A stretch of DNA of 64,000 bases from a bacterium (GCA_030616165.1 JAUWXV010000001.1:17843-81842); one strand, 5' to 3'; numbered from the stretch's first letter, positions 5,477 to 55,771 are shown. The notes: a model not told the origin generated them from the letters alone. Program-made: numbers and translations.

Positions 5477-5837
5477 CTATAATAAAATTCCTTATATTTA
5501 ATGAATAATATTTCAAATACCAAAAATCAGTTTTTATATGAAAATAATCTATTATTATGTTGAAGAAGAGTTTTGAATTCTAGATCTATTTTTATAATAT
5601 TGGTACATAATTTTAAAATAAGAATTATATTTAAAATTAATTTTAGAATATTTATTATAAATATCCATATAATCAGCAACACCCGGGTTTTTCATTGCCT
5701 CATCTAACATTCTTTCTTCTTCATTTTCTATTTTAGATTTAGTTATTTTATTTTTCATTTTAGACCTTTAATTAATTTTAATAATTTAAATTCAATAATT
5801 TAATATATTATAATATCGACAAAAATCAAAGAGTTTT

Positions 5838-19300: not shown

Positions 19301-21709
19301 ATGAAAAGAATAGTATTGTTATTCATTAATGTCTTATTTAGTATTCATTTTATAGTATTTCAGGTTTCTTTATTTGCAAGTGATGAATTTGCTACTGCTC
19401 TGCAAACTGACGAGTTGGAGATTCTGCAAGACACGAAACCTTTAACCTGGGAGGGTGACCTGTCGAAAAGAATGATGGACGGCGCCCATCGGTATATTGA
19501 GCGGAAAATCGACGAGTCAGTTACAGTCCGCCAGAAATACTGGAAGCGGGATCTCTCGTCACGAACTGCATATGAAAAATCCATCGAGCCGAACCGCAAG
19601 CGCTTCATGAAATGCATCGGTTTAGTGGGCGAGCGCGTGCCGGTTGTGATGCAGCGTCTTTGTGAAGATGCTAACCCAGAACTGGTTGCCGATACGGATA
19701 AATATAGCGTGTATCAGGTTCGCTGGTCGGTGCTGGATGGAGTGTTTGGCGAGGGGCTTTTGCTCGAGCCGAAGGTCAAGCCTACTGCTTATGTCGTGGC
19801 AGTTCCCGACGCGGGTCAGACTCCCGAACAAATTGTCGGCTTGGCAAGCGGCGTACCGAAAGAAGCACAGTATGCACGCCGCCTTGCCGAAAACGGCTTC
19901 CAGGTCGTGGTGCCGGTGATTATCAGCAGGTCTTCGGATTTTTCCGGGCACCAGGACCAGACACACCGTGAATGGATTTATCGCCAGGCGTTTCATATGG
20001 GCCGGCACATTATCGGCTACGAAATGCAGAAGGTGCTTGCAGTTGTGGACTGGTTCAAGAAAATAGCCGGAGAGGAGGCGAAGATAGGTGTTGTCGGATA
20101 CGGTGAGGGAGGATTGATAGCGTTTTATGCCGCGGCAGTGGACACACGGATAGATGCAGCACTGGTCAGCGGTTATTTCCAATCGCGTCAGGGTGTGTGG
20201 AATGAGCCGATATACCGTAATGTGTGGGCGCTGCTGCATGAGTTTGGAGATGCCGAAATCGCCACTCTGATTGCTCCACGTCCATTAGTAGTTGAATACA
20301 GCAGAGTGCCAGAGGTTGACGACTATGCAGAGAGGTTGCGGAGGAACCCTTATGTCACGAGTGGTTTTACTGTCGACGGGTATAAGGGCCAACTGCGCAC
20401 TCCGTCGTTTGAATCTGTCAGGGAGGAATTCAACCGAATTGACATACTGACGAAGCCGTCTTTTCAGCCGAAGAGCCTAATCAGCGGCAAGAACGGCTCT
20501 ACTGTGGCCCCCGGCTCGGTACAAGCGATGCGGGAATTTGCCCAATTGTTTGGAGTCCGATCGTCTATGACGCTGTCAATCGACCTGCCCATTGATCGCC
20601 GCAAGTCGCTCGATTCTGCCGAATTGCAACACCGGCAGCTCAAAGAGCTTGAATACCATGTGCAGCGGCTGATTCGCGATGCAGATTATGTCCGTGACCA
20701 ATTCTTCATGTACAAGGTGATGCCCGAATTTGCAAAAAAGAGGTGGAGCACCGCACAGCGACACGAGACATATCCATCGCAGAAGTTCATAGAAGGAACA
20801 AAGGAGTACCGTCAATACTTCTGGGAGGAAGTGATAGGTAAGTTCGATGAGCCAATGCTTCCGATGAATCCGCGAGCAAGGAAAATTTATGACGAACCGA
20901 AATGGGCAGGCTACGAAGTGGTGCTGGACGTGTTTCCGGATGTGTTTGCCTGGGGCATCCTGCTGGTTCCGAAAGACCTGAAAGCCGGTGAGAAGCGACC
21001 ATTGGTGGTATACCAGCACGGACGCAATGGTCTGCCCAGGAACTCCATCAAGGGAGGGCGGGAAGTTGCAGCGAAACTGGCTGACCGAGGATTTATCACC
21101 TTTTCACCGCACAACCTTTACCGTGGTGAGGATCGGTATCGCTTTCTTGACCGCAAGGCTAATGGAGTTAAGGCATCATTGTTTTCTTTCATCCTCGCTC
21201 AACACGAGCAGATTCTAAACTGGCTTGAAAAACTGCCGTTTGTGGATAGTAAGCGAGTAGGATTCTACGGGATTAGCTATGGGGGTGAGACGGCGGTGCG
21301 TGTGCCGCCGTTGCTTGAGCGATATTGTCTGTCAATCTGCTCAGCCGACTTTAACGACTGGGCGCGCAAGGTTGCCAGCACTCACCCTCAAGGCAGATAC
21401 AGTTTTATGTACACTATTGAATGGGAGATGCCGTACTTTGACATGGGCAGTACGTTCAACTATGCAGAGTTGGCATACCTGATGGTGCCGCGTCCGTTCA
21501 TGGTCGAGCGTGGCCACCACGACACTGTTGCACCTGATGAGTGGGTTGCTTATGAGTATGCAAAAGTGCGCTGGCTGTATGCACAACTGGGGCTTGCTGA
21601 TAAAACAGAAATAGAATACTTTAACGGCGGACACGCCATTAACTTCAGCGGTACATTCAAGTTTCTGCACAAACACCTGAACTGGCCGGAGCCTGCGGGG
21701 CAAGAATAA
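19301..21709 (+). CDS. secreted alpha/beta-hydrolase family protein (tandem hydrolase folds; esterase/peptidase-like)
   Basis: Signal peptide. GxSxG nucleophile elbows (VVGYGEGG and GISYGGE). GC-rich body. Confidence 0.5.
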   Translation: MKRIVLLFINVLFSIHFIVFQVSLFASDEFATALQTDELEILQDTKPLTWEGDLSKRMMDGAHRYIERKIDESVTVRQKYWKRDLSSRTAYEKSIEPNRKRFMKCIGLVGERVPVVMQRLCEDANPELVADTDKYSVYQVRWSVLDGVFGEGLLLEPKVKPTAYVVAVPDAGQTPEQIVGLASGVPKEAQYARRLAENGFQVVVPVIISRSSDFSGHQDQTHREWIYRQAFHMGRHIIGYEMQKVLAVVDWFKKIAGEEAKIGVVGYGEGGLIAFYAAAVDTRIDAALVSGYFQSRQGVWNEPIYRNVWALLHEFGDAEIATLIAPRPLVVEYSRVPEVDDYAERLRRNPYVTSGFTVDGYKGQLRTPSFESVREEFNRIDILTKPSFQPKSLISGKNGSTVAPGSVQAMREFAQLFGVRSSMTLSIDLPIDRRKSLDSAELQHRQLKELEYHVQRLIRDADYVRDQFFMYKVMPEFAKKRWSTAQRHETYPSQKFIEGTKEYRQYFWEEVIGKFDEPMLPMNPRARKIYDEPKWAGYEVVLDVFPDVFAWGILLVPKDLKAGEKRPLVVYQHGRNGLPRNSIKGGREVAAKLADRGFITFSPHNLYRGEDRYRFLDRKANGVKASLFSFILAQHEQILNWLEKLPFVDSKRVGFYGISYGGETAVRVPPLLERYCLSICSADFNDWARKVASTHPQGRYSFMYTIEWEMPYFDMGSTFNYAELAYLMVPRPFMVERGHHDTVAPDEWVAYEYAKVRWLYAQLGLADKTEIEYFNGGHAINFSGTFKFLHKHLNWPEPAGQE

Positions 21710-38653: not shown

Positions 38654-41254
38654 ATGGACTTATTTTTACAAGATGGGGCGAGGGTAGGAATTATAGGTGG
38701 GGGTCCCTCTGGGAGTTTTACGGCTATTCATTTATTGAGCATTGCAGCTTCGCTTAACAAAAAAATTAAGGTATTCATCTTTGATAAAAAAGATTTTACA
38801 TCTGGTTTAGGGTGTAATTTTTGTGCAGGCATTCTTTCTAATACACTAATTAAAGAGTTAGTCCAATATAATATTATTATCCCGCCAGAGATAATCCAAA
38901 GAGAGATTAAAGGATACTATTACGAGACGAGAGAGGGGACAGCATATTTCCCAAAGCCATCTACTTCATCAATTTTCAGTGTGTTCCGAGCAAATGGACC
39001 TTGCAGCTCAAAAGAATTATATAACGTTAGTTTTGACTATTTTCTTCTACAAGAAGCGATTAAAAGGGGAGCAAACAAAATAGACACCAATATCAATGAA
39101 GTCATTTTTCCTTCCACTCCACAGGATCGAGTATCACTTTACTCACAGGAGCAAAATACATATTATGAATTTGAACTGGTATTCGGTGCATTTGGAATAA
39201 ATACTCCTTTTATTAAAGAATTAGAAAAATCAGGAATCGGATACAAAGCCCCAAAATACCTGCATTCTGGTCAGGCTGAGATCCCCTACGATATATCTTT
39301 GAATAAAAAGTTTCATGACAATGTCACTGTTTTTCTTATTCCTCTCAGGAATTTATACTTCTTTTCCTTTACACCAAAAGCAGAGTATTTAACGGTTACC
39401 GCTATTGGTCCTCATGTTACAAAAGCAATGCTGGAGGAAATATTTACCATTCCGCAGGTTATGAAATATTTTCCAGACAAATGGCAGTTCCCATTGGAGT
39501 ATTGTCACTGTCATCCAAGAATATCTGTTACTATTGCGGAAAATTTCTTCTATCACCGTTTTGTGGTTGTCGGAGATGCTTGTTGGTCAAGGTATCTCAA
39601 GGATGGTATTGCATCTGCATTTTATACCTCAAAATTCGGAGTTGAATGTGCTTTCAAATATGGGATTTCACGTAATGCGTTCCGGGACAGATACTTTAGG
39701 GAAATTACTCGGATGGATAAAGATAATACTGTAGGAAAAATTTTATTTAAAATCCATAATAGATTGAAAAGGTCGCAGACTGTGCGGGGCTCTCTTTTTT
39801 CGATGACCAGAGATTACTATCATAAAACAATTCAGGAAAATGTACGATATATCCTATGGGGTTTATTTACAGGTGATTACTCTTATAAGAAGATAATGAG
39901 AAAATCTTTTAGGATTTCATTTATCGTGCCCTTTATTATAAATATTATTAATGCATACCTGAAGATTATCTTTAATAATCTGTCAAAAATTAATAAAAAA
40001 ACAAAATTAAGACCAATAAAAAATCAGAGCAGTAATGTAACAGTGTCAAATTTAGTAAACGGAGATACAATTATTGTTATTGGTGGGGGACCAGCAGGCA
40101 CTTCTTGTGCAATACATGCAAAAAAACTTGCTGTAAATAATAATATAGACTTGTCAGTCATATTAATCGAACCTAAAACTTTTAGCATACATTACAATCA
40201 GTGTGTTGGTGTTCTTTCCCCTAGGATAAAACAATTGATGGGAGATATAGGTATAGACTTCCCGGAACATTTAATTCAAACAAAAATTCCAGGGTATTAT
40301 TTGAATGCAAATGGTGAAGAAATATATCTTCCTTCTGATAAACATAACGATATTGGACTTGCTTTAAGGCGGAATGAGTTTGATGCTTTTATGATAGAGC
40401 AGGCTTTGCGGAACGGAGTACAAGTTGTCCGGGGAGAAGTTGTGACATTCGATTATTCAAAAAATGACAAAAAGAATAAATTCATTGTTTATTGCAATTC
40501 CGGCACTTATAAGTGCAATTTTATTGTAGGTGCTTTTGGTGTCGGGAATGGGATTGCCCTTGATTTTTTTAAAACTTTCCGGTACCGACCTCCACATATT
40601 CTTCAATCAATTGTTTCCAAAATTCATCCTCTGGATAATTTATATATTGATGAAATTTTTGGAAATAATATCCATACTTATCTCCCTAAATATAAAGCAA
40701 TTGAATTTGGAGCAATAACTCCAAAGGGCAACCATTTAACAGTCAATATCGCCGGTGAAAAAATCAGTTTTAAAGATATGGAATATTTTCTAATGATAGA
40801 TGAAGTAAAAAAATGGATTCCCCCCCATAAAGAACGAACTTACTTTAAAGGTCAATTCCCAACAAGTCCTGCACATCGATTCTATGGAGATAATTACTTG
40901 ATCATAGGTGATGCGGCTGGTTTAGTTCGGCCATTTAAAGGAAAAGGTGTAAATTCAGCAATTCTCTCAGGTAAAATTGCTGCTGAAACTATCGTGAATT
41001 ATGGCACAACGGCTCTTGCAATAAAACGAAACTTTGTACAACATCCACAGATACAAAAAATATTAATCGATTATAAATATGGAAAAATTATAAGAAAATT
41101 AACTATTCAGGCTTCACATCATAATCTTTTAAAATATATAATTAATTATGCAAAAAGAAATAAAACGTTCGAAACCGCTCTATATAATGCTGTCTCTGCT
41201 AACAGACTTTATAAGGATATTATTTTATGTACTTTAAGAAACTTAGTGAGTTAA
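38654..41254 (+). CDS. internally duplicated FAD-dependent oxidoreductase (two geranylgeranyl-reductase-like halves)
   Basis: Two GxGxxG dinucleotide motifs (VGIIGGGPSGSFTA at residue 10; IIVIGGGPAGTSCA at about residue 470), separated by a hydrophobic linker. Confidence 0.6.
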   Translation: MDLFLQDGARVGIIGGGPSGSFTAIHLLSIAASLNKKIKVFIFDKKDFTSGLGCNFCAGILSNTLIKELVQYNIIIPPEIIQREIKGYYYETREGTAYFPKPSTSSIFSVFRANGPCSSKELYNVSFDYFLLQEAIKRGANKIDTNINEVIFPSTPQDRVSLYSQEQNTYYEFELVFGAFGINTPFIKELEKSGIGYKAPKYLHSGQAEIPYDISLNKKFHDNVTVFLIPLRNLYFFSFTPKAEYLTVTAIGPHVTKAMLEEIFTIPQVMKYFPDKWQFPLEYCHCHPRISVTIAENFFYHRFVVVGDACWSRYLKDGIASAFYTSKFGVECAFKYGISRNAFRDRYFREITRMDKDNTVGKILFKIHNRLKRSQTVRGSLFSMTRDYYHKTIQENVRYILWGLFTGDYSYKKIMRKSFRISFIVPFIINIINAYLKIIFNNLSKINKKTKLRPIKNQSSNVTVSNLVNGDTIIVIGGGPAGTSCAIHAKKLAVNNNIDLSVILIEPKTFSIHYNQCVGVLSPRIKQLMGDIGIDFPEHLIQTKIPGYYLNANGEEIYLPSDKHNDIGLALRRNEFDAFMIEQALRNGVQVVRGEVVTFDYSKNDKKNKFIVYCNSGTYKCNFIVGAFGVGNGIALDFFKTFRYRPPHILQSIVSKIHPLDNLYIDEIFGNNIHTYLPKYKAIEFGAITPKGNHLTVNIAGEKISFKDMEYFLMIDEVKKWIPPHKERTYFKGQFPTSPAHRFYGDNYLIIGDAAGLVRPFKGKGVNSAILSGKIAAETIVNYGTTALAIKRNFVQHPQIQKILIDYKYGKIIRKLTIQASHHNLLKYIINYAKRNKTFETALYNAVSANRLYKDIILCTLRNLVS

Positions 41255-41320: not shown

Positions 41321-42829
41321 ATGACAAGGAAATTGCCACCCTTATTGTTAAATCCTATTAGTTTAATAGGGATTCTTATTGCTTTGACCAGTTTCATTGC
41401 CATTATAATTCTCTTTTTTGCTCATATTTTTTTAGCACCTGATAATCCATATATTGGAATAGTCACTTACCTGATTTTCCCAATCTTTTTAATAATAGGA
41501 TTACTTATAATTCCCTTCGGTATGTTTATTGAGAGACGGCAACAATTAAAAAGAAAAGGAATAAAAGAACGGCGTCTTCCAATTATCGATTTTAACCAGC
41601 AAGATCAGAGAAACGCTTTTATACTCTTTTTGATAGTTTTAATTATTTTTATGATATTGAGTGCTGTTGGAAGTTACAGAGCTTATGTTTTCACCGATTC
41701 AGTAGTTTTTTGTGGGAAAATCTGCCATTCTATAATGCATCCTGAATATATTACTTACATGGAGAGCCCTCATGCCCGGGTGTCATGTGCTGAGTGTCAT
41801 GTTGGAACAGGAGCCAACTGGTATGCCAAATCAAAGCTTTCCGGTGCATATCAGGTTTATGCTACAATAGCACAAAAATATCCTAAGCCTATTCCAACAC
41901 CTATCAAAAATTTACGACCAGCTCAGGAAACCTGTGAGCAGTGTCACTGGCCAGGGCAATTTTTTGGTGGGAAACAGAAAATATTTACTTATTATTTAAG
42001 TGATGAAGAAAACACCAAGTATGAAATTAATATGTTAATGAAGGTTGGTGGCGGAAATCCAAAATCCAGTAGAACTTCGGGTATTCACTGGCATATGAAT
42101 ATTCAGAATAAGATAGAATTTATATCAACGGATAATAAAAACAAAATTATTCCTTGGATTCGTTCTACTAACCTATTAACTGGGGAAGTAAAAACATTTA
42201 CTGATGAAGAGAACCCACTATCAGAAGAATTATTGTCAAAGAGTAAGCCTCATGTAATGGATTGTATGGATTGTCATAACCGACCAACTCATATCTTTAA
42301 GTCTCCAAGTCTTTCCGTTAATGAAAAAATTCTATTAAATCGAATTAATAAATCATTACCTGAGGTTAAATATATATCTGTTGAACTTCTTTCAGATGAT
42401 TATGAAACAACTGATATTGCAGTGAACACAATTGCCGAAGAGATTTGGAAATTTTACAGAGAAAATTATCCCAAGGTTTTTGAAAAGGAAAGGGATAGTA
42501 TAAAACAATCAATCAGAGAATTGCAGGAGATTTATCAGAGGAATATTTTTCCAGAAATGGGTGTAAAGTGGTCAGTTTATCCTGACCACATTGGACATCT
42601 TGATTTCCCGGGTTGTTATAGATGTCATGATAATAAACATATTACGGAATACGGAGACCGACTGGCGAATGATTGTAATCAATGTCACACAATTTTGTCG
42701 CAGGAGTTTGGAGGCGAAAAAGAAGAGACTCTCGACCCAAAAGGAATAAAATTTAAACATCCAGTTGATATTGGAGATGACTGGAAATTAGTAGGATGCC
42801 ATGAATGTCATACAGGATTAAATCCTTAA
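41321..42829 (+). CDS. inner-membrane heptahaem c-type cytochrome, ImcH-like (NapC/NirT-related quinol dehydrogenase)
   Basis: Three N-terminal TM helices. Seven haem motifs (CGKICH, CAECH, CEQCH, CMDCH, CYRCH, CNQCH, CHECH). Confidence 0.7.
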   Translation: MTRKLPPLLLNPISLIGILIALTSFIAIIILFFAHIFLAPDNPYIGIVTYLIFPIFLIIGLLIIPFGMFIERRQQLKRKGIKERRLPIIDFNQQDQRNAFILFLIVLIIFMILSAVGSYRAYVFTDSVVFCGKICHSIMHPEYITYMESPHARVSCAECHVGTGANWYAKSKLSGAYQVYATIAQKYPKPIPTPIKNLRPAQETCEQCHWPGQFFGGKQKIFTYYLSDEENTKYEINMLMKVGGGNPKSSRTSGIHWHMNIQNKIEFISTDNKNKIIPWIRSTNLLTGEVKTFTDEENPLSEELLSKSKPHVMDCMDCHNRPTHIFKSPSLSVNEKILLNRINKSLPEVKYISVELLSDDYETTDIAVNTIAEEIWKFYRENYPKVFEKERDSIKQSIRELQEIYQRNIFPEMGVKWSVYPDHIGHLDFPGCYRCHDNKHITEYGDRLANDCNQCHTILSQEFGGEKEETLDPKGIKFKHPVDIGDDWKLVGCHECHTGLNP

Positions 42830-42910: not shown

Positions 42911-44137
42911 TTATTGAGAAGATTCCTTTGCAATAGAAGACAGAGGTGTTGTTGCAGCTTCAGGCCATGGCGGAAGGATTTTTATGATTATATACAATAC
43001 GAATAGTGGAAGAAATAATAATGCAATGGATATCAAAAGACCTTCGATTCCTAAAAGTTCCATCTTATAATGGGTTAGTCCTCGAAGGCTTTTCGAGAAT
43101 AATTGACCACCTATCACGACGTTCCACCTTGTGCTGAATATCCCAATTTGAACTAAAATTGCCGCTCCAAAATAGATTAACCTACGTAACTCATCGGGGA
43201 GCCGGAATAGTTTTACAGATGCTAATGAACCCAAAGGCAGTAAAGTTCCCAGGAGTATTTGAATTACAACAAGACTTATAAACAATTTTTGTGATATCAA
43301 CTGGCCTAAAATGTGGATGGATTCAACAGACTCATACATCCGGTGGATAAAATCCAGGGTCTCGAGAGAAATATCAAGTATCATCGCATACAGCAGAAAT
43401 GACGCCAGTTTGTCCATGCATGCCATATCGATTGGTTTCCAACGAAAAAGGGTTGTTACACCATATATCAGGATCATCAACGCGATTCCTGAAACAATAG
43501 CCGAAAACAGAAATACAATAGGCATCAACACGCTGCTCCACCAGGGATTTGCCTTCACGGAGCCAAAAATAAAACCTACATATCCATGCAGTAAAAATGC
43601 TGACGGGATACCGATTATGGTAATAAACTTTCCTGCTTTACGGTCAAATCGTATTGCCTTTTCGGACAGGTCCAGTGAGCCTAATGAAAGAAGATAGTAC
43701 ATATACTTTCGCCATCCTTTTTTACTCCGAGCCCAATAAACGATGTCCTTCCTATAATCAAACCATATTTCGAGCATTAACACTATCATCAAGTACCAGG
43801 CGTAAACAAATCCGAACATTGCCATTGCTGACTTTAATTGAGGAGTGAGAAAAATTTCAATTGACCGTTCGGGGTAACTAAGGTGTGCAAGGAGCGGAAG
43901 TGGGGCTATGATCAGAAATGCCAGCGCAGTCAACATAGACAGGCGGTATGTAGGTTGAACTTCTTTTACTTCAAAAACACGCTCCAGTGAAGCAAGGATG
44001 AATGCCCCTGCGACAAGCCCTGTGATATATGGATATACGACTATCAAAATCCCCCAATGGAGTTCCACCTCGTTTGGATAAATATACCCAACCACTTGTT
44101 TTAAGATTGGCTGTAGTTGTTCGATTAAATTTTCCAT
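42911..44137 (-). CDS. NrfD/PsrC-type polytopic quinone-interacting membrane subunit
   Basis: About 10 TM helices with NrfD-like organisation; 2 bp downstream of the FeS subunit gene. Confidence 0.75.
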   Translation of the reverse strand: MENLIEQLQPILKQVVGYIYPNEVELHWGILIVVYPYITGLVAGAFILASLERVFEVKEVQPTYRLSMLTALAFLIIAPLPLLAHLSYPERSIEIFLTPQLKSAMAMFGFVYAWYLMIVLMLEIWFDYRKDIVYWARSKKGWRKYMYYLLSLGSLDLSEKAIRFDRKAGKFITIIGIPSAFLLHGYVGFIFGSVKANPWWSSVLMPIVFLFSAIVSGIALMILIYGVTTLFRWKPIDMACMDKLASFLLYAMILDISLETLDFIHRMYESVESIHILGQLISQKLFISLVVIQILLGTLLPLGSLASVKLFRLPDELRRLIYFGAAILVQIGIFSTRWNVVIGGQLFSKSLRGLTHYKMELLGIEGLLISIALLFLPLFVLYIIIKILPPWPEAATTPLSSIAKESSQ

Positions 44138-44139
44138 AA

Positions 44140-44898
44140 TTATCTCACTTCCCCATCCAAGTTAGCGTAATAAATTTTTGGTTCCGTATTAAGATGAGGT
44201 TTCAGAACCTGGACTTTGTTGAAACGCATGAATCGGGCTAATAGGCTGCTGCGCAAACCGATCTCGCCAAATATCCTCGCTTCGGTTGGACAAACTTCAA
44301 CACAAGCGGGCTTTAGACCCCGGGATAAACGATGATAGCAGAATGTACATTTTTCCGCCGTACTGGTCACAGGGTTAAGAAACCTTGCTCCGTACGGACA
44401 TGCCTGAATACAATAACGACACCCGAGGCAGTAATCTTTATCGATCAATATCACTCCATCCTTAGTGATAAATGTAGCACCTACCGGACATACCTGCACG
44501 CATGGTGGATTAGCACACTGGTTGCACAATTTTGGCACAAAGAAGGTCCGCATGATCTCATTTTCGGCAACCATTTCAGGAAAACCCTCACTTCCCCCAT
44601 TTGGGCTATCAACCTGTGCTGTCCCATCAATAAGAATTATGTACCGCTCAACCCAAGTCCGGAAAAAGAATGGTTCACGAGGTACATCATTTTCCCGCTT
44701 ACATGCATCTACACACTGTCCACAACCGATGCACTTGTCGACCTGAATTCCCATCCCGTATTGATGTATTGGTTCATTATCATTTGATGAATCAGAATCT
44801 TCTGAAGCAGGAGACCCGAATAATAACAGTACGGTTCCTACAAGTGTGCTTTCCCGTAGAAACTCTCGGCGATTCATCAATTCACGTTTCTTTTTCAT
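44140..44898 (-). CDS. Tat-exported 4x[4Fe-4S] ferredoxin subunit (NrfC/PsrB/DsrO-like)
   Basis: MKKKRELMNRREFLRESTLVG Tat signal. Four CxxCxxCxxxCP clusters. Start set at ATG 44898 (ATGA overlap with the upstream cytochrome stop). Confidence 0.85.
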   Translation of the reverse strand: MKKKRELMNRREFLRESTLVGTVLLLFGSPASEDSDSSNDNEPIHQYGMGIQVDKCIGCGQCVDACKRENDVPREPFFFRTWVERYIILIDGTAQVDSPNGGSEGFPEMVAENEIMRTFFVPKLCNQCANPPCVQVCPVGATFITKDGVILIDKDYCLGCRYCIQACPYGARFLNPVTSTAEKCTFCYHRLSRGLKPACVEVCPTEARIFGEIGLRSSLLARFMRFNKVQVLKPHLNTEPKIYYANLDGEVR

Positions 44899-45764
44899 CA
44901 GCGCACCTCCGGATAATGTGGATAATGACATTGCCAGCACGCATGATCAGGCTCATGTGACTGAAGGTCCACCCGCGGTATTTCCCCGGCACTTTCTGCA
45001 TTTTCTCCATGACAACCACCGCAAAATGTTCTCTTCCGTGGTTTACTGGGACGAAATGACCGGGGATCTTTTTTATGTGCTTCAGGAGCAGAGTGACACT
45101 GGGTACACTCCAGGGCAGCATGGTGTGAGACAGCTTTTGTCCGCGCAATTTCCCCGTGACATGCTCCACATTCCTCAGGGGGTTGCGGAGGTTTGGGATC
45201 ATGGGGTTCGTGACAAGACATACAGGGTTCTAAAGGATTATGTGTGACTATATTAATTTGGGGGAATCCCGTTGGCTTGGACGCATTATATATATGACAG
45301 AGGGGACATAAACCCCGCTGACGTGGAGCCGAAGGAGTATTTTCGCTGGGATCCTCAACATGGTTTGCACCTGGCCCATGGCATACTTCGCAGGCAACAT
45401 TCTGATGATAAGATGTTTGTTTTAACGCTACATATTCATCGTGACACTCTGAACACGCTTCCTGCCCAGCATAATGGATTGGAAGAGCTAATATAGAATC
45501 TATGGCAGCTGCTCGGTAGTGTCCCTCTTTTACAAAGGTGGGCGGCATTAAGTAATTCCGGACGGTAATGAGCATTATCACTAAAATAATAAAAATAATA
45601 AGTAAGCGTTTTATTTGGTCTGGAAAAGGAATTGATTTCCAGCCCGGCATTCTTAATTCTGGACGAAATCGAAAATTTAACATGTTTTTTGTCTGAATCA
45701 GCTTTTTAATATCAATTAAGTAATGAAAAACGAGATAATGAAAAATTTCATGGAATTTTAACAA
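44898..45764 (-). CDS. membrane-anchored octahaem c-type cytochrome
   Basis: TM helix LLIIFIILVIMLITV. Eight CxxCH motifs (CSECH, CEVCH, CPLCH, CMSCH, CGACH, CTQCH, CGGCH, CWQCH). The true start is probably an internal Met. Confidence 0.8.
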   Translation of the reverse strand: MLKFHEIFHYLVFHYLIDIKKLIQTKNMLNFRFRPELRMPGWKSIPFPDQIKRLLIIFIILVIMLITVRNYLMPPTFVKEGHYRAAAIDSILALPIHYAGQEACSECHDEYVALKQTSYHQNVACEVCHGPGANHVEDPSENTPSAPRQRGLCPLCHIYNASKPTGFPQINIVTHNPLEPCMSCHEPHDPKPPQPPEECGACHGEIARTKAVSHHAALECTQCHSAPEAHKKDPRSFRPSKPRKRTFCGGCHGENAESAGEIPRVDLQSHEPDHACWQCHYPHYPEVR

Positions 45765-46047
45765 ATTCAGTAAAATGAGAAAATCTATACGAATTTGGAA
45801 CTTATATCACTTGACTATTGTTAATCATTTGAAATTGTAATTTTCAATAAAAGATTTATATTTTGAAAAAAATATGGAGAAATTTTGAAAATTGTTAAAA
45901 AATTTGACATACAACCCCAAATGAAAATATGTATTATCAATCCCTTTTTATAATTGTATAAATTATATAAATAATATAAAATATTTTAAATTAAATATCA
46001 ATAATTTTTTTATTAATATTTTTTATAATTTATATATTTTATTTATC
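45765..46047. promoter_or_regulatory. AT-rich divergent intergenic region between two respiratory operons
   Basis: About 280 bp at under 20% GC, with multiple TATAAT-like and TTGACA/TTGACT hexamers in both directions. Confidence 0.35.
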
Positions 46048-46110
46048 TTGACTTTTTTAAAAAAAAATTATATTATTAAGAAAAATTTCATACTTAATAA
46101 CCAAACGATA

Positions 46111-46551
46111 ATGGAAGAGAGAAACACATCAAGAAAGAGTTTTATTAATTACCTGTTAGGCGGTGGTTTTACTCTTGTCGCAGCTTCTTTCTTATATCCA
46201 ATAGTGAGGTTCGTGCTCCCTCCAAAATCGACCGAAGCAGAACCTATGGCAGTATCTGCTGGCAAGGTTGGCGAGATGCATTTAAATTCTGGGAAGATAT
46301 TTAAATTTGGAAGAAAACCTGGTCTGCTTATTTATACAGAACAGGGTGAATATCAGGCATTTATGGCAACCTGTACACATCTTGACTGCATTGTGCAATT
46401 CCGAAATGATTCTGAAAGCATCTGGTGTGCTTGCCATAATGGATATTATGACCTTAATGGAAATAATATATCTGGTCCGCCCCCAAGACCCTTAGAAAGA
46501 CTGAATGTTTTTATAAAAGATGATGATATAATGGTTTCAAAAATTACTTAA
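46111..46551 (+). CDS. Rieske [2Fe-2S] iron-sulfur protein
   Basis: CTHLDC...CACHNG Rieske boxes and N-terminal TM/Tat-like anchor. Start at ATG 46111. Confidence 0.85.
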
Positions 46552-46552
46552 A

Positions 46553-47626
46553 ATGAAGACCTACACAACCAATCTCATTAATTGGCTTGATAAAAGATAC
46601 AACATAAAAGAAATAATAGGATTTATTACAGAAAAGAAGGTCCCTATTTACAAACACACTATCTGGTATTATATGGGAGGGATAACCCTTCTTTTTTTTA
46701 TCATTCAGGTTTTAACTGGCATACTTCTTCTTCTCTATTACCGACCTACTCCTGAGGAGGCATTTGAAAGTGTTCAATTTATTATGACACAGGTTCACTA
46801 CGGATGGCTTATCCGCTCTATTCACAGTTGGTCAGCAAATCTTATGATTCTTTTTGCATTTATACATATGTTCAGTGTATTACTCCTGAAATCTTACAGA
46901 CCTCCACGTGAACTAACATGGGTAACCGGTGTGCTGTTAATGTATATATCTCTTGCTTTTGGCTTCACGGGTTATCTCCTTCCGTGGAATGAATTGTCCT
47001 TTTTTGCCACAAAAGTTGGTACTGACATAGCGGGAGTTATTCCTTTTATTGGAAAATTCATTATTAGATTCCTGAGAGGTGGAGAAGACGTTACAGGAGC
47101 GACCTTGACGAGACTCTTTGGATTTCATGTTGCTGTCCTTCCAGGAGTAATCATTGTGATTTTGGTTATACATTTATTGATGGTTCAACGACAGGGAATG
47201 AGCAAACCGATAGGCTTAAAAGAAGTGAAGAAGGGGATGCTATTTTTCCCGGACTTTTTTTTAAGAGACCTTTTAGGATGGCTATTTGCAGTTGGGATTC
47301 TTGCAGCTCTGGCTGCTATCTTTCCCTGGGAACTGGGGCAGAAGGCAGACCCATTTTCATCTGCTCCAGAAGGCATCGCGCCTGAATGGTATTTTTTATT
47401 TATGTTTCAAACATTAAAATTCTTCCCCGCAAGAATATTAATTTTAGACGGCGAAGTGATTGCAGTCTTTATTTTCGCAGCACTCGGAATATTCTGGATT
47501 CTAATCCCATTTCTTGATACTAAAGCCAGAAGGGAACAAAAAAGCCCGATATTTACAACTATAGGTATTTTTGCAATTCTATACGTGGGGATAATTACTA
47601 TACTTTCTTATTTTGTATTTAAGTAA
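46553..47626 (+). CDS. cytochrome b (fused b6/subunit IV-type) of a Rieske/cyt b complex
   Basis: [38 protein letters not shown] (haem-ligating His helices), PEW motif region. Confidence 0.9.
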
Positions 47627-48933
47627 TGTATTCGCATAATCTTATGAAAAATATTATTAGACATTTCAACATTATTTACATACTATTTTTATTTATTTTT
47701 CTCTTCCCCGCTATATATTTATTTCCACAAGAAAGGCACAATAATTGTATCGAATGCCACAGTAAATTCGAAGAAGAAGAGACATCGCCAACCATTGAAT
47801 TTAAAAATGATATCCATAATACAAGTGGTATGTTATGTTCTGACTGTCATGGTGGAGACCCGGAAATAAATGCAGGTGGAAATCAAGAACTTGCTATGAA
47901 TCCTAAAAAAGGATATAAACCACCTCCGGGTCATAACGAAATCCCCGAATTCTGTGCAAGATGCCATTCTGATTTTGAATATATGAAAAAATTTAATCCC
48001 AATATAAGAGTAGACCAATATGAAAATTATTTAACAAGTCAACACGGGAAATTACTGGCAAAGGGAGATGATAAAGTAGCTAATTGTGTTAGTTGTCATA
48101 AAACCCACGGGATTCGAAAAAAAACAAACCCTGCCTCAGCCGTTTTTGCAAACAAAATTCCGGAAACTTGTAGTAAATGCCACTCAGACCCGGAATATAT
48201 GAAGGAATATAAAATCCTGACTAACCAGTTGGAAATGTATAAAAAAAGTGTTCACGGGGAATTTTTATTGGAAAAAGGGGACTTAAATGCTCCTGCTTGC
48301 AATGACTGCCACGGAAATCACGGTGCCGCTCCCCCGGGTGTCGAATCTGTACACAATGTCTGCGGAGTATGTCACTCAGGAAATAATCAGTTGTTCTTAA
48401 AAAGTTCTCATAAAAAATACTTTGATGAATTTGGCTTTCCAGAATGTGCATCATGTCATGAACATCATTTAATAAAAAAACTTACAGAAGAATCTCTCGG
48501 GGTTGGAGACCAATCTGTTTGCGGAATTTGTCATACACAAGAAGATGAAGGAGGTATAATCGCTGTTGAAATGAAAAATATTATCGAAAATTTTTCTGCA
48601 CTGCGGGATACTTGCCAAATATTGTCCGAAGAGGTAGAAAGGAAGGGTATGCCCGTTAATGAAATAAAATACCAGATGAACAATGTTGACTCTGAACTGT
48701 TAAAAGCAAGAAATATAGTGCATAGTTTTTCTCTGGAAAATATAAAACAAATAACTGAAGAAGGAACAAAACTTGCCATCTCTGTAAAAAAAATGGCAAA
48801 TGATGAATTAAAAGAATATCAAATTAGGAGAATAGGACTGGCTGTCTCGCTTTTCTTTATTTTTTTAGCGGGAACCGCCCTCTATTTGAAAATCAAGAAG
48901 ATAGACAAAAAAAATATAATAAATTCTTTTTAA
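47626..48933 (+). CDS. nonahaem c-type cytochrome with N- and C-terminal membrane anchors (cytochrome c subunit of the Rieske/cyt b complex)
   Basis: Nine CxxCH motifs. C-terminal TM IGLAVSLFFIFLAGTALYL. 1-bp overlap with the cyt b stop. Confidence 0.8.
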   Translation: MYSHNLMKNIIRHFNIIYILFLFIFLFPAIYLFPQERHNNCIECHSKFEEEETSPTIEFKNDIHNTSGMLCSDCHGGDPEINAGGNQELAMNPKKGYKPPPGHNEIPEFCARCHSDFEYMKKFNPNIRVDQYENYLTSQHGKLLAKGDDKVANCVSCHKTHGIRKKTNPASAVFANKIPETCSKCHSDPEYMKEYKILTNQLEMYKKSVHGEFLLEKGDLNAPACNDCHGNHGAAPPGVESVHNVCGVCHSGNNQLFLKSSHKKYFDEFGFPECASCHEHHLIKKLTEESLGVGDQSVCGICHTQEDEGGIIAVEMKNIIENFSALRDTCQILSEEVERKGMPVNEIKYQMNNVDSELLKARNIVHSFSLENIKQITEEGTKLAISVKKMANDELKEYQIRRIGLAVSLFFIFLAGTALYLKIKKIDKKNIINSF

Positions 48934-52184: not shown

Positions 52185-53288
52185 ATGAGTACGAATAAAT
52201 TACGAAAGTTATTACTGTGTATCTCATTAATAGGATTAGGAGCATTCTCATGCAGTGAGTTAGATATTAATAATCCTTTAACATATATAAATGATAAAAT
52301 ATCTTATGAAAAAGATATAAAACCTATTTTTGCGAATAGATGTATAGATTGTCATAGTGGAAGTTCGCCTGCAGGAAATTATAACCTTTCTTCCATATTA
52401 ACGATTATGGGGAACGGTACAGACTTGAAACCGAATGTAATTATCGGAAGTCCATATAGTCTTCTTCTGATGAAGATTATTATAGGGGACGATAACCACC
52501 GTGAGTGGATAGGCTCTGAAGAAAACACTCAAAAATTGTATAAATGGATAGTTGAGGATAGTTTGAGCATCAGTGAGCCGATTGTGCATCTTGCTGGACC
52601 TATGGATGTGGATTCACCAAATTTTCATGGACAGGATATTAGAAATAAAGCGTGGTCTATGGAATCATGTAAGCTCTGTCATGGAACTGACTATAATGGG
52701 GGTTCCTCAGAGGGTTCCTGTAACAAATGTCACGATCCAAACCCGGAGGAATGCACTACTTGTCATGGTTTTGGTATGCTTGATAATCATTTGGGAGCAC
52801 CACCTCCTGATCTGAGTAACAACATCGAGACTTCTTTTAGAGGAGTTGGCGCTCACACAATACACATGACAGAGGGCGATAATTCCGATGGTATTGAATG
52901 TGAATCCTGTCACATTGTTCCCCAAAATTTGTACGATGATGGTCATATTTTTTCTGAAGAGCCTGCAGAAGTTGTTTTTAGTTATCTTGCACATAATTTA
53001 GGAGCAGAACCAATCTGGGACACTGAAACCCTGACCTGTAAAGATGTTTACTGTCATGGAAATTTCCCTTCAGGAAACAAGGAGAATGCTCCAAAATGGA
53101 CTGGCTTTGATCCGAATCCACCGAGTTGTTCTCCTGCCTGCCACCAGTTTCCTCCTGTTGGTAAAACACGAACCGGTTTTAAACACTCTCCCAGTGTTTC
53201 TCAATGCTGGTACTGCCATTCCAATCTTGATAATAAATATAATTTTATTGATAAGTCAACTCATATTAATGGAATTATTGAAAGATGA
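52185..53288 (+). CDS. octahaem c-type cytochrome, probable lipoprotein (OmaB-like periplasmic component)
   Basis: Signal peptide ending GAFSC. Eight haem motifs including CxxxCH/CxxxxCH variants (CIDCH, CKLCH, CNKCH, CTTCH, CESCH, CKDVYCH, CSPACH, CWYCH). Confidence 0.7.
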   Translation: MSTNKLRKLLLCISLIGLGAFSCSELDINNPLTYINDKISYEKDIKPIFANRCIDCHSGSSPAGNYNLSSILTIMGNGTDLKPNVIIGSPYSLLLMKIIIGDDNHREWIGSEENTQKLYKWIVEDSLSISEPIVHLAGPMDVDSPNFHGQDIRNKAWSMESCKLCHGTDYNGGSSEGSCNKCHDPNPEECTTCHGFGMLDNHLGAPPPDLSNNIETSFRGVGAHTIHMTEGDNSDGIECESCHIVPQNLYDDGHIFSEEPAEVVFSYLAHNLGAEPIWDTETLTCKDVYCHGNFPSGNKENAPKWTGFDPNPPSCSPACHQFPPVGKTRTGFKHSPSVSQCWYCHSNLDNKYNFIDKSTHINGIIER

Positions 53289-54580
53289 ATAAACTCATAA
53301 GTGTTAAAATTATTTTGTTATATTTAATCTTTACAATTCTGCCATTATATGAGAATTATGGTCAGGTTATTACGGGAAGAGTGTCATCGTATATGTACAG
53401 CTGGCAAATTCAGGACCAACAGTCAGGTTCCTCTGAACATATTCGTTTGTATCAAACCCTTGTTATGAATGTTAAAAATGTTGGGAGCCCAAAAGTCTCT
53501 TTGCATACCAATATACGCTATACGAAGGACTTCATTAATGATAGCGATTACAATCACAATTGGAAATTTCAATATTTTTATGGACAGGTAAAAAAGGTTC
53601 TTCAAGTAGCAGATATTAAATTTGGTCGGCATTATGTATATTCTGGCGTTGGCAATGGTTCAATTGACGGGATTTCTACAAAGATAAAAGTAAAAGAAAT
53701 TGCTGATTTTGAATTTTATGGCGGAATGCCTGTTTCATGGTATCATGAAATAAAGGTCCAGAAATGGAACGAGAGTAGAATGTATGGATTACGAATACAG
53801 CCGAGAATGTTCTTGAATACATTGGTGAGTATAAGTTATGTTCAAAAAAAGATGAATCCCCTCCCTTATAAGATTCCTGGGAAGTTTACTTTCAAAAAAT
53901 GGGATATAACTTCTGATGCAGTGGAATTTGTTGGATTGGATTTCTATACTCAATGGTCTGAAAAAACGAGCGCGTATGGCCGCCTCGATTGGGATATGAC
54001 GTATGATGACATTTATCGGATAAATTTTTATTATAACAGGTCGCTCTTCAATAAATTTTCTCTCAGTGCTGAATACTACTATAGAAAACCGCGGATTTAT
54101 AATAATTCGATTTTTAGTGTGTTTGCTCAGCACGATAACCGAGAATACTGGTTTCGAATTTATTATAATATTAAAGAAAATCTGTCTGTATCCGGCGGAA
54201 CATCAATTGTTATTTATTCGGGAGATAAGGGATATCGACATAATGTAAGTATATATTCAAATCGTTTTAGTATTGGCTATAATCATACAAGCGGTTACAG
54301 CGGTAGATTGGATGGATTAACAGGAAGCGTTAATTATCCGATAAGAAATAATATATGGCTGAAGGGCGGTACAAATATTTCACGATACAAGCTGTTTGAA
54401 CATCTTGAAGACTTTGAAAATGTGTTAAGTACGTTTGCAGGAATTTCAATAATGCCCAAAAAAACTTGTACGCTGGATATCGAAGGGCAGGGATTACATA
54501 ATTATAATCACAGCAGTGATTTTCGGATACTTTTGAGAGCTAACTGCTGGTTTTCATTTGGTAAAATACGGAAAAATTAA
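53285..54580 (+). CDS. outer-membrane beta-barrel (porin-like) protein embedded between cytochrome genes
   Basis: Signal peptide. Dyad-repeat beta-strand pattern, aromatic girdle residues, no Cys/haem motifs. 4-bp overlap with the upstream cytochrome gene. Confidence 0.55.
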   Translation: MNKLISVKIILLYLIFTILPLYENYGQVITGRVSSYMYSWQIQDQQSGSSEHIRLYQTLVMNVKNVGSPKVSLHTNIRYTKDFINDSDYNHNWKFQYFYGQVKKVLQVADIKFGRHYVYSGVGNGSIDGISTKIKVKEIADFEFYGGMPVSWYHEIKVQKWNESRMYGLRIQPRMFLNTLVSISYVQKKMNPLPYKIPGKFTFKKWDITSDAVEFVGLDFYTQWSEKTSAYGRLDWDMTYDDIYRINFYYNRSLFNKFSLSAEYYYRKPRIYNNSIFSVFAQHDNREYWFRIYYNIKENLSVSGGTSIVIYSGDKGYRHNVSIYSNRFSIGYNHTSGYSGRLDGLTGSVNYPIRNNIWLKGGTNISRYKLFEHLEDFENVLSTFAGISIMPKKTCTLDIEGQGLHNYNHSSDFRILLRANCWFSFGKIRKN

Positions 54581-54592
54581 GGTGTTTATTAC

Positions 54593-55771
54593 ATGACACA
54601 TGTGAAAATAATCAAAACTGTTAAATGGGTTTTTTTCTTTTTTATTGTTTATTATGGAAGTTATTACTCTATAATTGCTGCTCAAAAAAATTCTATTATT
54701 TTTTCTCATAAACTGCATATCGAAGATATAGGAGCAGAATGTGTTGATTGTCATTCAACCATCCCGGAAAGTCAGGAAATGGATGATAAAAATCTACCAA
54801 AACATGAAGAATGCTTTATGTGTCATGATGATGATATAGCATCTCAAAAATGCGGTACTTGTCATTCTGATCCGGATAATCCCGAACCGTTGGAAAATCC
54901 AATTCGTGAATTTTATTTCAACCATGTATTTCATATCAAGGAACAAAATATGGAATGCGATAATTGTCATCAGGGATTGGAAAAAGTTGACTATGCACAG
55001 AAAGAAAATCTCCCGAGTATGGAACAATGTTATCAATGTCATGATGGTGTGACAGCATCGCAAAGATGTGAAGATTGTCATACACCTACAGCTCGCCTGA
55101 TTCCAATGACTCACACCCCTGACTGGAAATTAATTCATAAGCATTCATCAAATTTAATAGAATCAGAATGCATGACATGCCACCAAGAGAATTATTGTGA
55201 AGATTGTCATACGGGAACACGATTGCTGGAAATTGGAAATGAAGATAAAGACTATGTTAATCCCAACATTCCTTCGAGTGAAGGGAAAAAGAATATGGTT
55301 CTTCAAAGGGTGCATGAACTTAATTATCGTTACACACATGGAATTGATGCTAACGATAAAAAACTGAATTGTTCTTTTTGCCATCAAGAAACACAATTTT
55401 GCGTTAGATGTCATCAAGAAGAAGAAAAGATAAATATTTTAAAACCTTCCTGGCATTCAGGACCGGAATGGGGTGCTATTGTTGAAGCAGTGGGTTCAGG
55501 GGGAGGAAGGCATGCTCGGCTTGCCAGGAGAGACATTGAAAGATGTGCAGCCTGCCATGATTCACAGGGAGAAGACCCTGTTTGTCTTATGTGTCATAGA
55601 GATTTTCTTCCAGGAAGAGGAAATGATTTAAGAACACATTTTATAGGAATGTTTTCTGGGGCAGGAGAGGGAGCATGGCATGTTGATGAAGGTTCTATAT
55701 GTTTTAATTGCCATGTAAATTCTATGACACCCGGTGTGGGATTTTGCGGATACTGTCATAGCATCAAATGA
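54593..55771 (+). CDS. 14-haem c-type cytochrome (OmcB-like outer component)
   Basis: N-terminal signal/anchor; 14 CxxCH motifs in 392 aa. Confidence 0.8.
   Translation: MTHVKIIKTVKWVFFFFIVYYGSYYSIIAAQKNSIIFSHKLHIEDIGAECVDCHSTIPESQEMDDKNLPKHEECFMCHDDDIASQKCGTCHSDPDNPEPLENPIREFYFNHVFHIKEQNMECDNCHQGLEKVDYAQKENLPSMEQCYQCHDGVTASQRCEDCHTPTARLIPMTHTPDWKLIHKHSSNLIESECMTCHQENYCEDCHTGTRLLEIGNEDKDYVNPNIPSSEGKKNMVLQRVHELNYRYTHGIDANDKKLNCSFCHQETQFCVRCHQEEEKINILKPSWHSGPEWGAIVEAVGSGGGRHARLARRDIERCAACHDSQGEDPVCLMCHRDFLPGRGNDLRTHFIGMFSGAGEGAWHVDEGSICFNCHVNSMTPGVGFCGYCHSIK

Follow-up and report, generated by a model that had tools for sequence, protein, structure and literature searches.

The 64,000-nucleotide stretch of bacterial DNA considered here (hereinafter the window; JAUWXV010000001.1, 17843-81842) carries on its minus strand, at positions 42911-45764, three open reading frames (ORFs) in one direction that encode a multihaem cytochrome, an iron-sulfur (FeS) protein and an NrfD-like membrane protein, as seen from the ORF listing and direct reading of the sequence. 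The reading that we favour, with a probability of about 0.6, is that these genes encode a periplasm-facing inner-membrane menaquinol:multihaem-cytochrome c oxidoreductase that has no catalytic subunit. In the order of transcription, the genes of this cassette are as follows:

44898-45683, minus strand: membrane-anchored octahaem c-type cytochrome, 261 aa from the ATG at 45683
44140-44898, minus strand: protein exported by the twin-arginine translocation (Tat) pathway, with four [4Fe-4S] clusters, of the beta-subunit type of complex iron-sulfur molybdoenzymes, 252 aa from an ATG
42911-44137, minus strand: integral membrane, quinone-interacting subunit of the NrfD/PsrC superfamily, 408 aa, with about nine long helices and without cofactor motifs

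This gene set, named in an earlier reading of the same DNA (the original prediction), is borne out by motifs, Pfam matches and ORFs. The longest ORF for the cytochrome spans 44898-45764 and starts with a TTG at 45764; the ATG at 45683 is the likely start, and the resulting length of 261 aa is also called in the public copy of the contig, an independent assembly of identical sequence. The stop codon of the cytochrome gene (TGA, 44900-44898) and the start codon of the FeS gene (ATG, 44898-44896) have one base in common (TGATG), and the stop codon of the FeS gene (TAA, 44142-44140) is followed by TT (44139-44138) and by the NrfD ATG from 44137. Of the two junctions originally described, the 2-bp gap at 44138 is therefore correct, whereas the 4-nt ATGA overlap at 44898 is in fact a 1-nt overlap. 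For comparison, a scan of one genome per species yields 320 relatives of the NrfD protein, of which the best 80, 65-79% identical to the window protein, were taken; together with three contigs, these genomes make up a set of 83 related loci in which ORFs were called and labelled by BLAST with the window proteins. The same junctions (-1/-4 and +2) recur in relatives from other phyla, so that the tight packing is conserved and not due to chance.

The cytochrome contains exactly eight CxxCH motifs and a single N-terminal transmembrane (TM) helix (residues 27-45), beyond which it extends for just ~215 aa; the helix would be a Sec-type anchor, and the protein matches the Pfam families Cytochrome_C7 and Cytochrom_c3_2. 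All 76 near-full-length orthologues likewise have exactly eight CxxCH motifs, within 240-269 aa. In an alignment of 37 orthologues, eight histidines outside the motifs are invariant (H93, H108, H148, H161, H188, H203, H243 and H256), and a ninth, H55, is conserved in at least 90% of the sequences. Given that nine conserved histidines suffice for the bis-His ligation of eight haems, there is no obvious open catalytic site, and the pattern is the one expected of an electron wire in which all haems would be bis-His ligated. Over 90 aa, residues 75-164 can be aligned gap-free with residues 170-259 (37% identity, E 6e-25), which indicates that the octahaem protein is a tandem duplication of a tetrahaem module.

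These features bear directly on the possibility that the octahaem protein is itself a terminal reductase, either MccA/SirA of an MccACD/SirACD system or an Otr/ONR-type enzyme, with the FeS and NrfD proteins as its quinol dehydrogenase. The succession of an octahaem cytochrome, an FeS protein and NrfD does recall MccACD (PMC8076601), and profile searches weakly match MccA (4rkm_A, E 1.3e-3 over 39 residues only) and the N-terminal portions of octahaem nitrite reductases (E 1e-10). However, the cytochrome is a TM-anchored protein of 261 aa, compared with 732 residues in the MccA chain and 495-525 in octahaem nitrite reductases; its nine conserved distal histidines leave no obvious open haem, and its duplicated module is of the electron-transfer kind. 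A Foldseek comparison of the AlphaFold2 model (predicted local distance difference test, pLDDT, 82.6) with the PDB gives no significant match to such enzymes or to any other entry (best E 0.07, template modelling score of 0.21 or less), and at the sequence level, the profile matches to OcwA, octahaem nitrite reductases and NrfH are confined to short stretches around haem motifs. Taken together, this makes a terminal reductase very unlikely.

An exhaustive search of 1.84 billion representative sequences finds 849 relatives of the cytochrome; among the best 150 of these, 73 have four haem motifs, 14 have eight and 2 have twelve. The four-haem relatives are mostly ~150 aa long and match the anchor and the first module of the octahaem protein. 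Two sister cassettes of this type were looked up (L087, 2598-6448, and L088, 6001-8394), and both encode a ~150-aa anchored tetrahaem cytochrome followed by FeS and NrfD proteins, which in L087 are 55% and 56% identical, respectively, to those of the window. Versions of the anchored cytochrome with 362 aa and 12 haems, that is, with three modules, are also found (among the proteins P0127 and P0144 and the L087/L088 set). The existence of 4-, 8- and 12-haem versions implies that the anchored cytochrome grows by module duplication; the window cassette belongs to the eight-haem branch of a wider family of cassettes composed of a 4n-haem anchor, an FeS protein and NrfD. In the sources, the octahaem homologues are named "hypothetical protein", "cytochrome c3 family protein" or "multiheme c-type cytochrome", apart from a few plainly wrong Joint Genome Institute (JGI) labels, e.g., "ribosomal protein S27AE".

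The N-terminus of the FeS protein, MKKKRELMNRREFL, is a twin-arginine signal with the motif NRREFL, and the rest of the protein contains Fer4 domains only, best described by the four-cluster Pfam domain Fer4_11 (E 1.3e-26). All orthologues have at least 16 cysteines, sufficient for four clusters, and the Tat motif RRxF[LIVM] is present in 64 of 80. The NCBIfam scores all fall under the respective cut-offs: TtrB 201.7 (cut-off 416), DsrO 180.3 (200), NrfC 159.7 (377.6), ArrB 145.8 (450), QrcC 97 (400) and HmcB 97 (420), with DsrO the nearest to its curated cut-off. The best PDB matches are PsrB (2vpw_B, E 4.3e-45) and ArrB (E 4.2e-37), ActB being far weaker (E 5.3e-18), and the identity to E. 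coli NrfC is 37%. Judging from these comparisons, the FeS subunit is nearest to PsrB, NrfC and DsrO, and nearer to these than to ActB.

The membrane subunit matches the Pfam family NrfD (PF03916) over residues 25-347 (E 9.4e-34; 117.9 bits against a cut-off of 25.8) but stays under every curated NCBIfam subfamily cut-off (DsrP 41.1 against 350, NrfD 36.2 against 347.6, no match to QrcD). A PDB sequence search with the single protein or with a 41-sequence profile yields zero matches even at E 10; the subfamily placement relies on Pfam, hhalign and the predicted fold. An hhalign comparison with E. coli NrfD gives a probability of 95.7% and places H85 on His74 and S103 on Ser92, which are the conserved quinone-site residues of NrfD-like subunits described by Calisto and Pereira, namely, a His, Asp or Glu in the second TM helix and a Ser about 18 residues later (PMC8076601). 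Both H85 and S103, with which the window protein displays this pattern, are invariant across the family. The predicted fold is closest to that of ActC of alternative complex III (ACIII). The mean column identity across the family is 69% for NrfD and 59% for the cytochrome; this greater conservation of NrfD may fit an active, possibly ion-translocating role, perhaps with protons, as has been proposed for NrfD-like subunits (PMC8076601).

In the sources, the NrfD subunit is named "polysulfide reductase" or "HybB-like". The latter, a JGI label, is rejected because the hhalign probability for E. coli HybB is 1.8%, compared with the 95.7% for E. coli NrfD. Recognition of the cassette as a quinol:cytochrome c oxidoreductase free of a catalytic subunit would prevent false calls of polysulfide or hydrogen metabolism in metagenomes.

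The cassette is found in more than 15 phyla among the 83 related loci. The labels of the host metagenome-assembled genomes (MAGs) include Glassbacteria, Latescibacterota, KSB1, Calditrichota, Ignavibacteria, Bacteroidota, Acidobacteriota, Gemmatimonadales and Zixibacteria, as well as Krumholzibacteriia, Marinimicrobia, Fidelibacterota, Omnitrophota, Lentisphaeria, Aminicenantes, Deferribacteres and others. At E 1e-5 or better, NrfD relatives form at least 8000 clusters, the best 120 of which are all at least 70% identical, and the octahaem cytochrome is represented by 1061 clusters at 90% identity. The order cytochrome, FeS protein, NrfD holds in 79 of the 83 loci, and the remaining four end at a contig edge.

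No molybdopterin oxidoreductase is encoded among the window ORFs of at least 500 aa, all of which were scanned against Pfam, and none is detected by Pfam among the 20 large proteins encoded within ~1.5 kb of the cassette in relatives; these are tRNA synthetases, peptidases, transporters, a hydrogenase large subunit, a DUF2339 protein and similar. Because the cassette is uniform and has no molybdopterin neighbour in relatives, the missing catalytic subunit is a family trait rather than the outcome of gene loss or an assembly gap. The original prediction had claimed the absence of such a subunit and had singled out a molybdopterin gene beside the cassette in a relative as the observation that would overturn it; the claim holds for the window and for the relatives checked, and the search for such a gene came back empty. 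That the cassette is a degenerate molybdoenzyme operon of the Psr/Ttr/Arr type, with the catalytic gene lost or missing through an assembly error, is suggested by the scores of the FeS protein, which are best against TtrB and PsrB. This scenario is nevertheless hardly credible in view of the cytochrome-first arrangement in 79 of the 83 loci (the rest being cut at a contig edge), the lack of molybdopterin proteins among the neighbours scanned, the identical sequence in the independent assembly and the high purifying conservation across the family.

In a neighbour-joining tree of NrfD, the sequences group by phylum only in part and are otherwise somewhat mixed; the window protein falls with KSB1 and Glassbacteria sequences. 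The GC content at third codon positions (GC3) of the cassette, 0.35-0.40, is modestly raised over the ~0.27-0.30 of the immediate neighbours. The GC3 rise and the partly mixed tree together suggest some horizontal spread of the cassette, although this evidence is not decisive.

Two other genes recur near the cassette in relatives. In Calditrichota, Ignavibacteria, Marinimicrobia and other groups (loci L005 at 4732-6378, L012, L019, L038, L046, L047, L056, L061, L069, L080, L082 and L083), the gene directly upstream, co-oriented with the cassette, encodes a protein of ~545-577 aa, which is missing from the corresponding place in the window; the L005 copy is a DUF2339 membrane protein. A recurrent ~665-aa cytochrome with 17 haems adjoins the cassette in several relatives (L006, 9438-11441; L030, 3050-5050; L065, 3437-5458; L071, 2439-4430; L078, 4166-6232; L081, 3448-5442; L085, 4418-6412).

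In the proposed mechanism, menaquinol would bind in NrfD close to its periplasmic side, where the invariant His85 and Ser103 would form part of the site. The proximal of the four [4Fe-4S] clusters in the Tat-exported FeS subunit would accept the two electrons of the quinol, which would travel along these clusters and into the wire of eight bis-His haems; the N-terminal helix of the cytochrome would keep this subunit beside NrfD. From the haems, the electrons would move on to the other periplasmic and outer multihaem cytochromes encoded in the same genomic island, probably for extracellular electron transfer. The original prediction of a pure electron-transfer link between the quinone pool and periplasmic cytochromes is thus supported by the motifs, the conservation and the absence of a catalytic partner in relatives. 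By analogy, the complex would be in effect a minimal ACIII-like core, with equivalents of ActA, of the FeS half of ActB and of ActC, or a module of the Cbc4/NrfBCD/NetBCD type. Modules that connect the quinone pool with periplasmic multihaem cytochromes decide the respiration of minerals, electrodes and partner cells and the energy kept in the process, and the window family is apparently among the most widespread and best conserved of them.

A similar role has been proposed for several systems of related architecture. The genome paper on Melioribacter roseus describes an "NrfCD cluster" (Mros1571-1572) without a molybdopterin subunit and proposes the same role (PMC3534657), and the proposal is repeated for cluster 2 of MBNT15 (PMC9386147). 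Given that a Melioribacter sp. MAG (locus L080) carries the cassette, with an NrfD protein 67% identical to that of the window, the M. roseus cluster probably belongs to the same family. These remarks are genome annotation, and neither an octahaem partner, nor the duplication, the breadth of the family or linkage to Rieske and cytochrome b genes is mentioned there; the M. roseus multi-omics paper (PMC5492636), checked for expression data, does not mention the NrfCD cluster. In Methanoperedenaceae, menaquinone:cytochrome c oxidoreductase clusters encode multihaem cytochromes together with an FeS and an NrfD-like protein (PMC7327174), and NetBCD and SirCD are functional quinol dehydrogenases for extracellular or anaerobic electron transfer (PMC8805035, PMC11434368).

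Among the closest counterparts is Cbc4 of Geobacter sulfurreducens (CbcS-CbcT-CbcU, GSU0068-0070), compared here by description. The cytochrome of Cbc4 is an anchored bis-His multihaem protein, its FeS protein carries four [4Fe-4S] clusters, and its membrane subunit has no cofactor; with no catalytic subunit, the complex is proposed to act as a menaquinol:cytochrome c oxidoreductase that supplies periplasmic cytochromes (bioRxiv 10.1101/2025.04.14.648717; PMC13591261). The window cassette shares this three-part architecture, but its cytochrome has eight CxxCH motifs instead of four, and its linkage to a Rieske/cytochrome b operon (see below) is unreported for Cbc4. As published, CbcS consists of an anchor, a linker and four CxxCH motifs, which is the layout of the ~150-aa tetrahaem proteins of the sister cassettes; a search for tetrahaem homologues and a screen of these for Tyr63 and Tyr159, taken from the CbcS preprint, identified no Geobacter protein.

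E. coli NrfBCD and Aeromonas NetBCD likewise combine a periplasmic cytochrome (NrfB or NetB) with a Tat-exported FeS protein and NrfD, and Shewanella SirCD is a module of the same kind. The window proteins fall short of the NrfC and NrfD equivalog cut-offs by a wide margin, as given above; the pentahaem NrfB aligns with the octahaem protein in hhalign over only 43 columns (probability 82%) and is otherwise unrelated; the NrfD protein of the window has 408 aa and about nine long helices, compared with 318 aa in E. coli; and no scanned window protein has a Pfam match to an NrfA-type domain. In ACIII, the membrane-subunit fold (ActC/ActF-like) is, as judged from the model, the one shared with the window NrfD. 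By contrast, ActB chains have 933-1039 residues, whereas the window FeS protein has 252 aa and no molybdopterin-like B1 domain, ActA is pentahaem rather than octahaem, and there is a single NrfD with no adjacent genes for ActD, the monohaem ActE or the second NrfD-like subunit, ActF.

Qrc, Hmc/Nhc and DsrJOP resemble the cassette in joining a periplasmic multihaem cytochrome, an FeS protein and an NrfD-like subunit that interacts with menaquinone. The molybdopterin-like QrcB of Qrc is absent here, and neither QrcC nor QrcD is recovered at its cut-off. For DsrMKJOP, the DsrO and DsrP scores are below the cut-offs, no DsrMK-like genes are adjacent, and DsrJ is a trihaem protein. For Hmc/Nhc, HmcB scores far below its cut-off, the HmcA chain (of the 16-haem HmcA or 9-haem NhcA type) matches the cytochrome profile only at E 0.05, and the HmcDEF partners are absent. 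Unlike the organisms in which these systems occur, the hosts of the cassette are, as judged from the window, not sulfate reducers. The complex iron-sulfur molybdoenzymes (Psr/Ttr/Arr/Dms) differ by their alpha subunit, which is absent in the window and among the 20 large neighbours. Within the NrfD superfamily (PF03916), to which the window protein belongs, the cassette thus departs from each named family in at least one tested defining feature and constitutes an uncharacterised branch of the NrfD/FeS/multihaem quinol:cytochrome c oxidoreductases. The kind of cassette is already established: by analogy, it would work like Cbc4 or NrfBCD and be built as a stripped-down ACIII core. For the octahaem duplication, the breadth of the family and the six-gene linkage described next, no paper was found in a literature search of incomplete coverage, which is weak evidence.

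Next to the cassette, in divergent orientation, lies an operon for a Rieske/cytochrome b complex:

45684-46110, between the divergent genes: AT-rich intergenic region, GC 13-22%, presumably with both promoters
46111-46551, plus strand: Rieske [2Fe-2S] subunit (Pfam Rieske domain and PetC TM anchor; b6f-type Rieske below cut-off)
46553-47626, plus strand: 357-aa cytochrome b of the fused b6 and subunit-IV type; its Qo motif is PEWY, and it matches Pfam Cytochrome_B (E 3.2e-56) and Cytochrom_B_C
47626-48933, plus strand: nine-haem cytochrome, nine CxxCH motifs, TM segments at residues 16-34 and 403-421, the conserved third gene of the trio

The likely start of the Rieske gene is the ATG at 46111 (the longest ORF begins with a TTG at 46048), and its orthologues, 137-149 aa long, adjoin the cassette. 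The nine-haem protein has a signal or TM segment at its N-terminus, is anchored by a TM segment at its C-terminus and occupies the place of cytochrome c1/f in the operon. The divergent arrangement across a very AT-rich region of ~280 bp, as originally described, is confirmed: between the mechanically called ORFs, the spacer (45765-46047) has 283 bp with a GC content of ~13-22%, or ~427 bp with the likely starts. Shared regulation had been suggested as well. Sigma-70-like promoter matches are at the chance level (14 against 11.9 expected), the Bacteroidetes-type promoter TTTG-N17-21-TAnnTTTG occurs 3 times in the window (3.5 expected) and not in the spacer, an Rfam scan of the spacer gives no match, and the direct and inverted repeats in it are only A/T low-complexity sequence; these searches neither support nor refute a shared regulatory site.

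An orthologous cytochrome b (at least 45% identity) is encoded within the flanks examined in 24 of the 83 loci, and any cytochrome b in 36; the linked orthologues are 52-61% identical to that of the window. In 15 loci, the six genes are collinear, with an NrfD-to-Rieske gap of 13-256 bp in 14 of these and 1077 bp in one. The labels of these loci are Calditrichia, Zixibacteria, Glassbacteria, Terriglobales, Lentisphaeria, Melioribacteraceae, Bacteroidetes, KSB1, Marinimicrobia and Ignavibacteriae, with three unclassified; the divergent layout of the window is one variant, seen also in L020 and L078. Given that Rieske and cytochrome b genes are normally few per genome, the linkage is far above chance, and the synteny strongly supports a functional link between the cassette and the Rieske/cytochrome b operon. 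Recurrent coupling of this kind raises a concrete question on energy conservation in extracellular electron transfer outside Proteobacteria. In the Melioribacter sp. MAG (L080, 9250-12051), the trio of Rieske, cytochrome b and multihaem cytochrome genes directly follows the cassette. The genome paper on M. roseus states that cytochrome bc1 genes are absent (PMC3534657); a b6-type complex may have been overlooked there, or may be absent from the type strain.

The island around the cassette looks like an extracellular electron transfer system. Besides the genes already listed, it includes:

41321-42829, plus strand: NapC/NirT-related cytochrome, 502 aa, Pfam Cytochrom_NNT, three TM helices
49299-52076, plus strand: multihaem cytochrome, 925 aa, eight CxxCH motifs and one variant motif, with PKD-like, MtrC/MtrF-like and type IX secretion system C-terminal sorting domains
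52185-55771, plus strand: three consecutive genes for a 367-aa six-haem, a 431-aa haem-free and a 392-aa 14-haem protein

The 502-aa cytochrome, whose gene is convergent to the cassette, has seven haem motifs (six CxxCH and one with longer spacing); by its described architecture, it resembles ImcH, the inner-membrane quinol oxidase of Geobacter (bioRxiv 10.1101/2023.05.03.539133), and homologues with 40-48% identity adjoin the cassette in 11 of the 83 loci. The 925-aa protein is a candidate for a cytochrome displayed on the cell surface after type IX secretion. In the downstream trio, the six-haem protein has a lipobox-like N-terminus and is a probable lipoprotein, the haem-free protein is Tyr-rich, has no Pfam match and is a possible outer-membrane beta-barrel, and the 392-aa protein is a 14-haem cytochrome of the c7 type, so that the set resembles a porin-cytochrome conduit. 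Directly upstream of the ImcH-like gene, at 38654-41254 on the plus strand, an 866-aa protein is encoded that consists of two geranylgeranyl-reductase-like halves dependent on flavin adenine dinucleotide (GG-red-SF, 132 bits against a cut-off of 158.8) and weakly matches the menaquinone reductase MenJ; from its sequence, it might be involved in quinone side-chain modification.

Several points weigh against a menaquinol oxidase. The exact family has no experimentally studied member, and the direction of electron flow cannot be told from sequence; Qrc, with related FeS and NrfD subunits, runs in the opposite direction, reducing menaquinone (PMC6303296). Deletion of cbcS in the analogous Geobacter Cbc4 has no phenotype in Fe(III) or Mn(IV) reduction (bioRxiv 10.1101/2025.04.14.648717), and metal reduction is not known for many hosts of the family; extracellular electron transfer may therefore not be its general role. 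The AlphaFold2 model of NrfD, with its approximately nine long helices, is of moderate confidence (pLDDT 71.6).

The same complex could thus operate in reverse, as a Qrc-like and possibly electrogenic cytochrome c:menaquinone oxidoreductase. Electrons would then come from periplasmic multihaem cytochromes, fed by extracellular donors or a periplasmic hydrogenase, and the adjacent Rieske/cytochrome b complex would re-oxidise the quinol, so that the two modules would form a quinone loop. Two quinol oxidases in one operon would be redundant, which a reductase paired with an oxidase would not be, and the trio is indeed linked in 24 of the 83 loci and collinear in 15. Qrc, which contains NrfD and FeS subunits, is an experimentally demonstrated electrogenic quinone reductase (PMC6303296); the higher conservation of NrfD (65-79%, as opposed to 52-61% for cytochrome b) hints that its role is an active one; and one Calditrichota MAG, a single case, has a gene for a NiFe hydrogenase large subunit 1.1 kb downstream of the cassette (L012, 10359-12074, minus strand). 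On the other side, the characterised modules of cytochrome, FeS protein and NrfD without a molybdopterin-like subunit (NrfBCD, NetBCD, SirCD) are all treated as quinol dehydrogenases, the ImcH-like quinol oxidase and the secreted cytochrome of the island are typical of outward flow, and no conserved donor-oxidising enzyme adjoins the cassette in relatives. Reverse operation is accordingly regarded as unlikely.

A related view is that the cassette and the trio of Rieske, cytochrome b and nine-haem genes form one conserved unit, either a periplasm-to-periplasm quinone loop or a physical supercomplex; the 15 loci with six collinear genes, which come under about nine phylum-level names, prompt this doubtful proposition. 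Under such a scheme, the NrfD module would, like Qrc, pass electrons to menaquinone from cytochromes of low potential, be they periplasmic or extracellular, and the bc module would re-oxidise the quinol by a Q cycle towards higher-potential extracellular acceptors; if so, energy would be conserved without a redox site in the cytoplasm. A literature search found no description of a pairing between an NrfD cassette and a bc trio.

The physical version of this idea, in which the cassette is a sub-complex of a hybrid "bc plus NrfD" supercomplex and shares a single haem wire with the Rieske, cytochrome b and nine-haem proteins, is compatible with NrfD-to-Rieske gaps of down to 13-36 bp in the collinear loci of Melioribacteraceae, Lentisphaeria, Marinimicrobia, Bacteroidetes and Ignavibacteriae, and with the membrane anchors present in both the octahaem and the nine-haem cytochromes. 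It appears quite improbable, however, given that in the window the two units are divergently transcribed and that 59 of the 83 loci have no orthologous cytochrome b in the flanks, including 29 of the 39 in which the flanks reach 5 kb or more on each side. The cassette therefore also exists alone.

Farther from the island, two genes differ from the rest of the window in composition. The genes at 15566-17005 (minus strand) and 19301-21709 (plus strand) have a GC content of 0.51 and a GC3 of 0.56-0.59, compared with a GC content of 0.367 for the window and a GC3 of 0.23-0.36 for most of its genes. The first encodes a protein without a Pfam match and the second a hydrolase containing DLH and peptidase S9 domains; both genes may be recent acquisitions.

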